IMG/VR virus record: IMGVR_UViG_3300035698_012122
Coordinates: 12,686 to 76,685 of that record
Strand: one strand, 5' to 3'
From: a virus
Length of the DNA: 64,000 nucleotides
The position numbers and the translations under genes are program-made. Below the pieces are notes generated by a model. The model searched no databases. It was not told the DNA's origin and was given only the letters and a program-made list of their open reading frames with translations. Shown piece by piece: positions 5,319 through 18,602 of the stretch; position 1 is the stretch's first letter; every line of letters begins with the position of its first letter.

Positions 5319-5633
5319 ATGAAACTATGTGAAGAACTAGATGTTGCTATGAATGAAGAGATTGTCCAAGTTACTAAAGATTTAAAAATGGTGGACAAGT
5401 CTAAAGCAACAGGTAAAGGCAAGAAGCCTATTATATACCTAAATGGTTCGGATGGTTACTGGTACAATAAAAGTGGAATATTAAATCAGATTAGAGCTAA
5501 AGGTGAAATAAAAGAATTTGGTTTTACCAAAGGAAATGATGACATGGCAAAAGCTGAAAAAGATTTTATGGATAAAAAAATAACAATGTCAGCTTATTAT
5601 GAACTAGCATCTGAATTAGACCACAACAATTAA
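5319..5633 (+). CDS. Small protein with capsid-targeting-like leader MKLCEEL (candidate internal head protein 1)
   Basis: GGAG RBS before ATG 5319 (the track's TTG 5307 is less likely). Leader DNA identical to next gene over 24 bp. Confidence 0.7.
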   Translation: MKLCEELDVAMNEEIVQVTKDLKMVDKSKATGKGKKPIIYLNGSDGYWYNKSGILNQIRAKGEIKEFGFTKGNDDMAKAEKDFMDKKITMSAYYELASELDHNN

Positions 5634-5643
5634 GGATATAAAT

Positions 5644-6057
5644 ATGAAACTATGTGAAGAACTAAACAAAGAAGTTAAAATGAGTACCAGTGAAGCAATT
5701 GATAACAACACCTATCTAGGTGGTTATTTAAATGCACTTCTATTTGTTGGAACTGATGAAGAAGATAACCCATTAGATGATGAACATGACATTGACGATA
5801 TTGATAAAGATTCTGTTAAGAAATCTGAAAAAGATATTGCTAAGTTTCTTAAAATGGCTAAAAAAGAATTAGAAGGAATTGAAGCTGATGATTCACAAAT
5901 TGGTCATGACATTCTAATGACTAGACAAGGCACTGGTGTTGGTTTTCTCGATAGAGACTATGCTGATGATGCAATATTAAAAAAGTTAGATGGGTATGCT
6001 GATAAGCTTGGAAGCGTTTCACCTTTTGCTGAAAACGGAACTGTAGGAATTGATTAA
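5644..6057 (+). CDS. Small acidic protein with leader MKLCEEL (candidate internal head protein 2)
   Basis: AAGGA RBS. Body has GHDILMTRQGTGVGFLDR, resembling a recurrent uncharacterised phage family (GHDFWLTRNGHGxGFWD-like, recalled from memory). Confidence 0.75.
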   Translation: MKLCEELNKEVKMSTSEAIDNNTYLGGYLNALLFVGTDEEDNPLDDEHDIDDIDKDSVKKSEKDIAKFLKMAKKELEGIEADDSQIGHDILMTRQGTGVGFLDRDYADDAILKKLDGYADKLGSVSPFAENGTVGID

Positions 6058-6743
6058 TGAGTTATGAAAACTTACCAGATTCAACATTAGATGTAGTCAC
6101 AAGTGCTGGTGCTGTAATGTCTGAATTTAAACAGATGGTGAAAGTAGAAATGCCAAATGTTTCAACGGTTTTCGATCCACTATTATCTTATGATTCTGCT
6201 GTAGCAAAATTCTTAAAAGAAAATAAAAATTATGAAGGTAGCCCACTTCCACTTTTTGCATATAACAGAACCATTACAAATTACGGTGATGTTGGATTAC
6301 AAAAGAGAAGTAAAAGGGCCACTGGTTGTATTGCTTTAGAAAACCAAGATGGGATAGCTAAATACTCAGTCATGCAGGGGGAATTTATAATTAACTTCCT
6401 TTACATAACGCAAAGCATGGAAGAAGTGGAAAGGTTTGAAGTTGCTTACTATGGTGAAGGAATATCCAAAACAACGGAAATAATCGTATCAATGCCAAAG
6501 CTAGGTGATTTTAGCTACTTTTTAGATTACAATGAATTAGATGATATTGTTATTGAAAAAGAGGGGTCATACTACAAAAGCGTAATTGGAACTATAAAAG
6601 TGCGTGGAATGTATTTCACATTCAAGGGCCAATCTGCTTTAATTAAAGAAATAACGTCAAGGATAATATCTTCAAACAATATTCCACTGTTGGAAGAAAA
6701 TGAAGTATTAGGAAATATATTAATAGATGAAACAGATAATTAG
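6057..6743 (+). CDS. Putative tail terminator / tail completion protein (gp15-like)
   Basis: 228 aa with PLPLFAYNR motif, located between neck and sheath genes. Confidence 0.5.
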   Translation: MSYENLPDSTLDVVTSAGAVMSEFKQMVKVEMPNVSTVFDPLLSYDSAVAKFLKENKNYEGSPLPLFAYNRTITNYGDVGLQKRSKRATGCIALENQDGIAKYSVMQGEFIINFLYITQSMEEVERFEVAYYGEGISKTTEIIVSMPKLGDFSYFLDYNELDDIVIEKEGSYYKSVIGTIKVRGMYFTFKGQSALIKEITSRIISSNNIPLLEENEVLGNILIDETDN

Positions 6744-6762
6744 ATAATAAGGGGAAATTCCA

Positions 6763-7125
6763 ATGAGCAAAAACAACAATGGTAGAAAAAGAGACAGCCA
6801 AAATAGTATCAAAGGTGATGCATTGGAAAATGACCGAGTACCAGCACCAAAAATGAAAATTACGGCTAAAGTTTTAGATGGAAACACTATAGAAAAAAAT
6901 GAAAGTGTCGATAAGTCTGCTAAACAGAAGATTCAAGAAAAGCGTGACTCTGGTGCAAGAAAAGAAAAACGTGTGAATATTGGATGGGTTATCTCAAGAT
7001 TAGATGAACCAAAAGATGTTGAGTACGATGGTAATGTAATGAGAGTTTCACCACGAGCGAAAATGAAAGTAGCAGATCATACTAAGTTGGGAGATTTACC
7101 CAATGGTTTAGTTCTGAAAAAGTAG
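6763..7125 (+). CDS. Hypothetical protein
   Basis: 120 aa ORF with AAGGGG RBS. Confidence 0.7.
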   Translation: MSKNNNGRKRDSQNSIKGDALENDRVPAPKMKITAKVLDGNTIEKNESVDKSAKQKIQEKRDSGARKEKRVNIGWVISRLDEPKDVEYDGNVMRVSPRAKMKVADHTKLGDLPNGLVLKK

Positions 7126-7203
7126 TATAGTATTATTATAAAAGATATTAACAAAAAAGTTATTTAATATATAAAAAATTAAATAGAACAACGGAGGTTT
7201 TAT

Positions 7204-16592: not shown

Positions 16593-17042
16593 ATGAAAAA
16601 CATTTCTGAAGCAATGAAAGAATTTAAAACTAATGAAAAACCAGTAAACGAAAAACGTAAAAAGATGAAACAAAAAGAAATGATCGAAGAGTTAAATAGT
16701 TACGGTGGTAGTAATAAGAACATCTTTGTTTTTGACCCTGATTCGGGTAAGTCATTTAGCATTTCTCACATAACAGAAAATGGCCCTAAAACTCTTCAGA
16801 TGAATGTTGATTCGGCATGGTGGGATAAAAACGAATCAGTTGATGAAGCCAAAACAATAAATCCATTATCACAACTAGATAAAGGTTCTAGTACAGTTCT
16901 TTTTGATCTTCTAAAACTTAATGGAATAGAAGACGTAACAGAACTAGGTAAAAATGCAAAAGCTAAGAAGAAACTTTTAGATGATTTAGATTTTGCTAAA
17001 GGTGTGCTTGAAAAGGTTATTAAAGAAGTACACTCACTATAG
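16593..17042 (+). CDS. Protein with leader MKNISEAMKEF (candidate internal head protein 5)
   Basis: AAGGA RBS. Leader similar to 15491 and 18186. Internal NESVDEAK linker. Confidence 0.7.
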   Translation: MKNISEAMKEFKTNEKPVNEKRKKMKQKEMIEELNSYGGSNKNIFVFDPDSGKSFSISHITENGPKTLQMNVDSAWWDKNESVDEAKTINPLSQLDKGSSTVLFDLLKLNGIEDVTELGKNAKAKKKLLDDLDFAKGVLEKVIKEVHSL

Positions 17043-17049
17043 GAATTAA

Positions 17050-17823
17050 ATGTTACTAAAATTTGCAGATCATTTAAAACCATCTAAATCATTGAAAAGA
17101 TTTCATAAAGGAATCGTAGTAGATAATGAAGACCCTGATAAATTGGGAAGAGTTAAATGTACTGTTAGCAGAATGTTTATAGGTGATAAAGCAAATTTAC
17201 CATGGGTTTTTCCAAAGAATGATTCACCAGTAAAATTTGATGTTCCTAAATTAGGTGCAGAACTAATTATCATATTCCCTTTTGAAAATATTTATGCACC
17301 ATTTCATGATGGTTATTGGCATACACTGGACAATCACAATGATTACTTTGATGATGATTATCCTAATACTTCTGGTTTTTTCAAAGAGAATCTAAAAGGT
17401 AAATTTAACGATAAATCCAAAGCTGGTGAAGTAGAACATAGTTCTGGAACTAAAGCAGAACTAGCAGATGATGGAAGCGTAACAGTGGCCATTGCAAAAG
17501 ATTTAGAGTTAACTATTGAAGGCAAATATGCCGTTAATGCTAAAGGTGATATGACCTTTGCAACAGATGCTAAAATAAGTTTTGCTGGTGCTGGTGGATT
17601 GGATTACACAACAGATGGTAATGCAGTTTTTAAAGGTACTGGTGGAACTGATGTAGGTGATGCATCAAGTGCTACAAACGTAAAAGGTTCTGTAGTTAAT
17701 TTAGCTGGTGGTGGTTCGGCAATCGCACTTCTTGGTTCACAATGTATAGGGTCAGGAAATCATGGAGCACCTGTTGTAAGTAATATTGTAGAAGGAAGTA
17801 GTAAGGTGTTTGCACCAAAGTAG
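17050..17823 (+). CDS. Baseplate central spike (gp5/gpV/VgrG-type OB-fold plus beta-helix)
   Basis: GIVVDNEDPDKLGRVK ... LPW ... VPKLGAEL, HSSGT, followed by short beta-repeat region and PAAR-like C-terminus. Confidence 0.88.
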   Translation: MLLKFADHLKPSKSLKRFHKGIVVDNEDPDKLGRVKCTVSRMFIGDKANLPWVFPKNDSPVKFDVPKLGAELIIIFPFENIYAPFHDGYWHTLDNHNDYFDDDYPNTSGFFKENLKGKFNDKSKAGEVEHSSGTKAELADDGSVTVAIAKDLELTIEGKYAVNAKGDMTFATDAKISFAGAGGLDYTTDGNAVFKGTGGTDVGDASSATNVKGSVVNLAGGGSAIALLGSQCIGSGNHGAPVVSNIVEGSSKVFAPK

Positions 17824-17828
17824 GATAG

Positions 17829-18170
17829 ATGAATTTATGTGAATCAATTAACTATGCAATAAACGAAGGTGTAAAAGACTTCATAAAAGAGAAGTTTAAA
17901 ATCAAAGACGATGCCTTTGAAAAAACAGAACCAGATCATTGTGTTAAATCAATTGCTAAAACTAAAGATGGTTGGGTAGGATTTAGTCATAGAGCATACC
18001 ATGAATTTAAAGTTGGTGATAAATTGTTCGATGCTAAATGGGATGATGATGGAAACCTAACTGAAGAAGAAGTTGAGAAACTAAAATTTGTAGAACGTGG
18101 TGCTAAAAAATGTAAAAATCAAGAAGACTGTAAACAAGCATCTGCAAATTTTGCACAATATGTATCATAA
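17829..18170 (+). CDS. Protein with leader MNLCESINYAINEG (candidate internal head protein 6)
   Basis: TAGGA RBS. Body WVGFSHRA...FKVGD...ASANFAQYVS resembles a recurrent uncharacterised large-phage family (recalled from memory). Confidence 0.7.
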   Translation: MNLCESINYAINEGVKDFIKEKFKIKDDAFEKTEPDHCVKSIAKTKDGWVGFSHRAYHEFKVGDKLFDAKWDDDGNLTEEEVEKLKFVERGAKKCKNQEDCKQASANFAQYVS

Positions 18171-18185
18171 CCATAAGGGGTAAAT

Positions 18186-18602
18186 ATGAAATCAATTAAC
18201 GAAGCAATGAAAGATTTTAAACTAAATGAGAAAAAAGAAAAGGTATCAGAAGCTAAATCAACTTTCACATTAGACAGTATGCCAGATGAAAAAGAAGCTA
18301 TGAAAATTCTTAAAGATGGTGGAATTAGTTTTTCTAATAAAAAGAACAAGTTCACATTTGACGATAAAGATTACGATAAAGCAGTTAAGATGCTTAATGC
18401 TAAAGAAATTGAAGGCATTGATGAGAAAAAAGCTGATGAAGCAACAATGTTTCCATCTGAAAAGAAATTCTATAGTGGAATAGAAACAGTTTATAAAATA
18501 CTTAATTCAGCTAAAGACAAAACAGCTTCTAAAGAACTTGTTTCTGAATTGGCTAAATTAGAAAATAAAATGCTTAAATTTTTAAGAGCTGAAGATATAT
18601 AG
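18186..18602 (+). CDS. Protein with leader MKSINEAMKDF (candidate internal head protein 7)
   Basis: AAGGGG RBS. Internal VSEAKS and ADEATM linkers. Confidence 0.7.
   Translation: MKSINEAMKDFKLNEKKEKVSEAKSTFTLDSMPDEKEAMKILKDGGISFSNKKNKFTFDDKDYDKAVKMLNAKEIEGIDEKKADEATMFPSEKKFYSGIETVYKILNSAKDKTASKELVSELAKLENKMLKFLRAEDI

Follow-up and report, generated by a model that had tools for sequence, protein, structure and literature searches.

A short N-terminal leader on unrelated proteins of an uncultured myovirus, probably a capsid-targeting propeptide of the T4 type

The virus represented by IMG/VR record IMGVR_UViG_3300035698_012122 encodes a set of small proteins that begin with the same short leader and have otherwise unrelated sequences. 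The window analysed here is a stretch of 64,000 nt, bases 12686-76685 of that 76,685-bp contig, whose estimated completeness is 64%; coordinates are window positions unless marked "contig". Sequence comparisons confirm that eight open reading frames (ORFs) share this N-terminal leader far beyond chance, six of them in the window and two upstream of it between the portal and prohead protease genes, while a ninth, at 15971, is weak and at most a possible divergent member. The shared N-terminus is probably a T4-type capsid-targeting propeptide of 10-15 residues, with the core [SQ]-I-N-E-A-[MI]-x-E and with or without an MKLC prefix. The capsid-targeting principle has been known from T4 since the 1990s; the present case is a well-supported and real new example of it in a poorly studied clade, with one cargo that has a plausible anti-Thoeris role.

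All seven ORFs that an earlier sequence-only reading of the window had singled out (5319, 5644, 15491, 15971, 16593, 17829, and 18186) are in place on the + strand with the N-termini it described, but only six are firmly linked: ORF 15971 is not, and two additional members lie outside the window. When the first 12 residues of all 85 genes predicted in the 76.7-kb contig were compared blind with one another, a BLOSUM score of at least 22 was reached by 12 pairs, where about 0.4 were expected, and every one of these pairs falls inside the set of eight. With a leave-one-out position matrix applied to every start in six frames, the eight leader genes scored between 8.3 and 23 bits, and the best non-member, an antisense ORF, scored 5.5. 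Neither the 12-residue comparison nor the matrix linked ORF 15971. The + strand of the window is a myovirus structural block and the - strand a replication block; no gene in the latter scores with the leader matrix, and the leader is specific to the late strand. A leader profile scan, of the kind the same reading had suggested, matched no early or replication gene, and a scan with the leader DNA pattern found nothing but MK..EAMKEF stretches that are unrelated to the leaders and lie inside the genes for primase, portal, and others.

The leaders come in two forms, MKLC.. and MKSINEAMKEF, which make up one family with the common core [SQ]-I-N-E-A-[MI]-x-E-F. SINYAINEG from ORF 17829 and QINEAISNEF from the gene at contig 10573 both align with SINEAMKEF, and repeat finder family D3 aligns the two forms at the DNA level as well. 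The leaders are 10-16 amino acids (aa) long and end in [IL]-(S)-N-E or, in broader terms, in [ILM]-x-E or x-N-E. The MKLC form begins two adjacent + strand genes, 5319..5633 (104 aa; MKLCEELDVAMNE, with the predicted cut before E), whose body has no Pfam or PHROGs homologue, and 5644..6057 (137 aa; MKLCEELNKEVK, then an internal Met), whose body belongs to phrog_1915. Three + strand genes have the MKSINEAMKEF form and orphan bodies: 15491..15961 (156 aa), 16593..17042 (149 aa; MKNISEAMKEFKTNE), and 18186..18602 (138 aa; MKSINEAMKDFKLNE). The first of these starts with TTG behind an AAGGGG ribosome-binding site (RBS), while an in-frame ATG at 15476 has none. The remaining firm member of the window, 17829..18170 (+, 113 aa), reads MNLCESINYAINE with the predicted cut before G, and has a Tad6-like body. 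The doubtful one, 15971..16576 (+, 201 aa), begins MKTLTEQLKLE.. and is an orphan, with no homologue among 5.8 billion proteins. The two upstream genes, contig 10016-10576 (186 aa; MKLCNKINEELSNE) and contig 10573-11247 (224 aa; MKLCSQINEAISNEF), lie between portal and protease, 2.1-2.7 kb ahead of window base 1; the second has a very basic, Lys/Arg-rich tail and a match to phrog_1053.

Beyond the leader, the bodies are as unrelated as had been claimed. No pairwise BLASTP similarity was found (best E-value 0.04, in a nine-sequence database), on which ground true paralogy of the bodies was rejected, and their isoelectric points range from 4.3 to 8.8, so that they are not all basic. No body matched any baseplate family, although conserved baseplate subunits had been named as what these genes might turn out to be instead. 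The MKLC start was also considered as a lipoprotein or signal peptide; this was rejected because the leader is charged and has no hydrophobic core. Cys4 is conserved in five leaders, and leaders in a Vibrio phage have a conserved ICE[SA], as might be expected of a recognition tag for a modifying enzyme, in the manner of ribosomally synthesized and post-translationally modified peptides, for instance a radical SAM enzyme with the conserved Cys of MKLC as its target. Cys is absent from the MKSINEAMKEF form, however, and there is no Radical_SAM match in the contig (64% complete) or in four of the five complete relatives with leader families, and this explanation was rejected as extremely improbable.

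The head module is of the T4 type, with a Portal_T4 portal encoded a short way upstream of the window, a Peptidase_S77 protease, and a distant gp23-like capsid protein. The protease (1..1298, +, beginning 48 nt before the window) matches PF03420 at 37.8 bits (cut-off 27) as well as phrog_207, in agreement with the earlier recognition of a gp21-like protease, and its N-terminus is MKNVPIIGISNE, with the predicted cut before R. The major capsid protein (1466..2899, +; weak Gp23 match) begins MKPNEINE followed by D, which is the leader-end motif. Of the 30 occurrences of the pattern [ILM]S?NE among 24,062 residues, 13 are within the first 15 residues of a protein; these 13 comprise ten in seven leader proteins and one each in the capsid protein, the protease (..GISNE, then R), and a helicase-sized gene. 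As judged from sequence evidence alone, the leaders end in a cut-type motif, hydrophobic-x-Glu, that is also N-terminal in the capsid protein and in the protease. The S77 domain of the protease is fused to an acidic coiled-coil tail of roughly 250 residues; the whole looks like a protease-scaffold fusion and is a probable docking partner for the leaders.

By capsid protein, the closest cultured relatives of this phage (25-33% identity) are Rhizobium phages (Kleczkowskaviridae), Ralstonia RP13, Yersinia YerA41, Vibrio 1.031.O, an Acinetobacter phage, E. coli IME392, and Maribacter phages. A 14-kb stretch had no megablast match among GenBank phages, and searches for IMG/VR relatives with the capsid protein and with the Tad6-like alignment found none in either case; a metagenome scan yielded two short contigs, including JGI contig L012, discussed below. 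The blind N-terminal test was repeated on two complete relatives, YerA41 and RP13, and then on five others. In YerA41, four ORFs begin MSRISxLNKKFE and one more has ..VLKKFESEE, all adjoining the portal, and the capsid protein N-terminus is ..LLVKKYES. RP13 has a leader family ending [IV]NE[SA] and a capsid protein with the N-terminus MNTKIKTLAEINES. The five further phages with leader families are from Rhizobium (at least 10 members), Vibrio (4), Acinetobacter (4), Maribacter (at least 3), and E. coli (IME392, weak); their capsid protein N-termini carry hydrophobic-x-E-[SA], a looser version of the same covariation. Each phage has its own leader family. Among 42 leader proteins from seven phages there is a single significantly similar pair of bodies, the Tad6-like proteins of this phage and RP13. 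The largest leader family seen here in a cultured phage is that of Rhizobium phage RHph_TM39, with ten leader ORFs between 67 and 180 kb (MS[KR]A..[LI][LI]..[LI].E); these are scattered in non-structural regions, so leader genes need not lie in structural operons.

The arrangement in the window could suggest a different destination. Five of the seven window genes (15971 counted) flank the gene for the central spike (17050..17823, +), which has the OB domain of Phage_base_V, and the leader might load proteins onto the spike, hub, or tail lumen instead of the head, much as cargo effectors of type VI secretion systems are encoded beside VgrG. An internal KSINEF in a tape-measure-like protein could be taken the same way. 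The same leader is found on genes of the head module, however, the capsid protein and the protease have its end motif at their own N-termini, and most leader genes of YerA41, Vibrio 1.031.O, and RP13 are beside portal or capsid genes. Prohead proteases moreover work inside the closed prohead. Loading onto the tail is accordingly judged improbable. In the tape-measure-like protein itself (11269-13221), the internal stretch IKERKSINEFADKK near residue 526 is like a leader plus cut motif, and may be a processing site or a coincidence.

Proteomic data are available for YerA41. In Table S2 of its description (PMC7354516), genes 004, 005, 006, 008, and 009 are late and particle-associated in liquid chromatography coupled to tandem mass spectrometry (LC-MS/MS); matched by length and order, these are GenBank 210c, 209c, 208c, 206c, and 205c, the five leader ORFs. 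Gene 105 (GenBank 059), the Tad6-like homologue, is listed there as middle and particle-associated. In its sequence (YerA41_059; L003 5842-6189) the annotated start is 13 codons upstream of a leader-like KSRIGELNAKFEGE, with no canonical start codon directly ahead of that segment. The detection of leader proteins in mature particles of YerA41 bears on another possibility, that the leader does target the prohead, where the proteins would serve as parts of the scaffold or core and, like T4 gp22, gp67, and gp68, would be broken down and expelled at maturation and not delivered. Prohead core genes of T4 lie between portal and protease, as do two of the leader genes here, and the protease has a scaffold-like tail, so that the phage may need additional core proteins. 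Besides the YerA41 detection, this is countered by the swapping of bodies between close relatives, which would be unlikely for essential core parts, by the homology of two bodies to proteins that other phages encode outside structural genes, and by the compact folded domain predicted by AlphaFold2 for the Tad6-like body. This possibility is unlikely, though somewhat less so than the others considered here.

In the Tad6-like protein, ORF 17829, residues 25-113 match positions 55-145 of the 145 in Tad6 PF25188 (E 8e-14, 52.3 bits, cut-off 27); the match leaves out profile positions 1-54, the leader takes up residues 1-13, and the full-length Tad6 architecture is not present. Orthologues 53-77% identical retain M[KN][LIM]CESI..[LI]NEG, and the Tad6-like homologues in RP13 and YerA41 also bear the leader-like segment of their own phage. 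One of the orthologues (P0002 to P0007) lies on a 97.9-kb contig. In an AlphaFold2 model built from eight sequences (predicted template modelling score, pTM, 0.68), residues 1-12 have a predicted local distance difference test (pLDDT) value below 50 and the remainder is folded; the boundary, at residues 12-13, coincides with the predicted cut between INE and G. Neither Foldseek with this model nor a profile search by sequence found a match in the PDB, and the sole match in BFVD is an unnamed protein of 108 aa with 30% identity. According to the summary in PMC13728456 of Yirmiya et al. (2025), Tad6 is a type I Thoeris inhibitor that binds ThsB. The suggestion that the leader proteins are anti-defence cargo has sequence support for one of them, through Pfam Tad6, and none for the others.

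A second body has relatives elsewhere. That of ORF 5644 falls in phrog_1915, a common family of small acidic phage proteins of about 114-127 aa (137 aa here), with some 12 residues added in front; its homologue CR9_166 in Cronobacter phage CR9 starts at the point where the leader of ORF 5644 stops, and its neighbours in the array are small genes without a structural role. At least the Tad6-like body, and perhaps that of phrog_1915 too, is a version of a protein whose gene in other phages lies away from the structural ones (the YerA41 copy of the former being middle-stage), and both are candidate host-takeover or anti-defence factors. The two leader proteins of the head module, of which one has the very basic tail, may act as core proteins or as internal proteins that bind DNA.

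Contig L012 gives a view of how the bodies change. Its spike and baseplate proteins are 78% and 80% identical to those of the window, and between these two genes lie a Tad6-like gene with a frameshift and two ORFs whose match to window proteins is confined to a 16-residue leader, M..I[NS]EA[MI][KN]EFK.NE. This leader is conserved as a peptide, with synonymous changes. In the Tad6-like gene (L012 631-970) an A-run carries a frameshift that breaks the gene after 33 codons, which points either to misassembly or to a cassette in decay. On contig L013 there is a more distant Tad6-like gene (L013 421-744) with a shorter leader, MKLADELNES, which adjoins not a spike but homologues of the nuclease-like and ParB-like genes that lie upstream of the portal in the present contig. 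From these positions, the Tad6-like cassette appears to move between modules.

The 31-nt stretches at 5309-5339 and 5634-5664, covering the RBS, start, and first seven codons of the adjacent unrelated genes 5319 and 5644, are 90% identical (24 nt identical), and are likely a crossover point for cassette exchange; in the three MKSINEAMKEF genes the RBS plus leader aligns over 67 nt at 67-73% identity. Such possible crossover points would fit a shared start that is a scar of recombination or duplication, or a translation-initiation cassette for shuffling and expressing accessory genes, with a peptide that has no targeting role. The peptide-level conservation in L012 argues otherwise, as does the persistence of the leader in seven distant phages, where the pattern of residues is kept but DNA identity is not, and recombination does not explain why the end motif matches the N-terminus of each phage's own capsid protein. 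We regard this as quite unlikely, about on a par with loading onto the tail.

The capsid-targeting propeptide is thus the reading we prefer, and each computational test run agrees with the earlier suggestion of a leader that addresses proteins to the capsid and is removed by protease (head genes, end motif, head-module leader genes, body swap in L012, and YerA41 proteomics). In outline, the leader genes would be read together with the late structural operons, and the leader would dock each protein on the scaffold core, of which the protease's acidic coiled-coil tail and the products of the genes between portal and protease are the probable components. The shell of the capsid would close round this core, after which the S77 protease would cut behind Glu in [ILM]-(x)-N/K-E, as it would on the capsid protein and on itself. 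Mature bodies, which would be swappable cassettes, would remain in the head and exit with the DNA at infection. In this sequence of events it is the docking, position of cleavage, retention, injection, and function that we infer.

Several points weigh against it. The chance of a capsid protein carrying its own phage's leader-end motif in its first 25 residues is 0.019 for this phage ([IL]NE), 0.007 for RP13 ([IV]NE[SA]), and 0.005 for YerA41 (K[FY]E[SAG]), but these values are optimistic because the motifs were defined after the leaders had been seen. The motif fits poorly in ORFs 15971 and 5644 (LNKE, not NE), ORF 18186 has Asp where the other leaders have their first Glu, and five leader genes are in the baseplate operon, outside the head module. 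The YerA41 particle preparation contained 63 proteins, polymerases and other replication enzymes among them (PMC7354516), so it may include contaminants, and the supplement gives presence or absence per protein with no peptide-level evidence on N-terminal trimming. ThsB of Thoeris is reported to sense capsid proteins late in infection (PMC12578639), in which case a Tad6-like protein made late and not packaged could act without injection. Finally, the phage is uncultured, and known as a metagenomic contig that is 64% complete.

A wider proposal, which we find possible but rather less than probable, is that a single ancestral and fast-evolving capsid-address code runs through a large, diverse clade of T4-related myoviruses comprising the YerA41 and RP13 groups, Kleczkowskaviridae, Molycolviridae, marine Vibrio phages, and this lineage. 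Its last residues would co-evolve with the protease and capsid protein, and it could be read as a list of the injected proteome, including a pre-packaged Tad6-like ThsB inhibitor that would block Thoeris before phage gene expression. Even the narrower reading, if it holds, would have practical uses. A shared N-terminus ending in the N-terminal motif of the capsid protein itself would be a short rule for listing the proteins brought into the cell by a phage, applicable to uncultured phages and to several cultured groups whose leader sets seem undescribed, and such lists would lead directly to new factors for anti-defence and host takeover. A Tad6-like protein that bears a leader and is associated with the virion would, to our knowledge, be the first Thoeris inhibitor for which ready-made delivery is proposed, and the leaders could serve as packaging tags in engineering phages of Rhizobium, Ralstonia, Yersinia, Vibrio, and flavobacteria.

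The closest known system is that of T4. Its capsid-targeting sequence (CTS), MKTYQEFIAE, is cleaved once (PMC8442874), its gp24 and internal protein (IP) propeptides are 10-20 residues long (PMC5694885), and T-even internal proteins are diverse defence proteins with the CTS alone in common (PMC3012670). In T4 the prohead protease gp21 takes the CTS off IPI, IPII, IPIII, and Alt, and the propeptide off gp24. Experimental evidence that the leader suffices to package a foreign protein, and that cargo is injected with the DNA, comes from T4 only (PMC3012670, PMC8442874). As a control, the N-terminal test was applied to T4, where it recovered IPII and IPIII (MKTYQEFIAE), IPI, Alt, and a small CTS-like ORF, along with true paralogues such as homing endonucleases. 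A 54-aa ORF at 18966 (- strand) of T4 NC_000866 begins MKTFKEFIKED, close to the IP CTS. The T4 N-terminus nearest to MKSINEAMKE is the gp24 propeptide, MAKINELLRE, followed by the CTS-like ORF, and there is a likeness to the CTS MKTYQEFIAE too; with these as the nearest T4 sequences the leader system looks related to that of T4, and probably is, so that the sequence-only reading went too far in calling it independent.

Both T4 and this phage have a short N-terminal leader that ends in hydrophobic-x-Glu on unrelated proteins, and the S77 protease, T4-like portal, and gp23-like capsid protein are likewise in common, as is the variation of cargo genes between relatives. There are differences as well. 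There are 8-9 members in 64% of a genome here, known from the sequence, and 4-5 in T4; two leader forms with a common core are present; the bodies are not uniformly basic, and one is Tad6-like; and the leader genes are embedded in neck and baseplate operons as well as in the head module. The ejection proteins of the giant phages phiKZ, 201phi2-1, and SPN3US provide a second parallel, with propeptides cut after Glu by a related prohead protease (gp175/gp245). Their paralogues gp53 and gp54 have identical 15-residue N-termini and divergent remainders (PMC5694885). Those propeptides are mostly longer than 100 residues and have an A/S/G-x-E motif, whereas the leaders here are short and have [ILM]-x-E as in T4. 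In phage P1, an N-terminal signal of less than 30 residues loads the anti-restriction protein DarB, one of the Dar proteins, into the capsid for delivery (PMC9024508). The Dar proteins are without a consensus leader and no removal by protease is described for them, in contrast to the common leader with a cut motif found here. Compared with Tad6 itself, the leader of ORF 17829 occupies the place of the missing first 54 profile positions.

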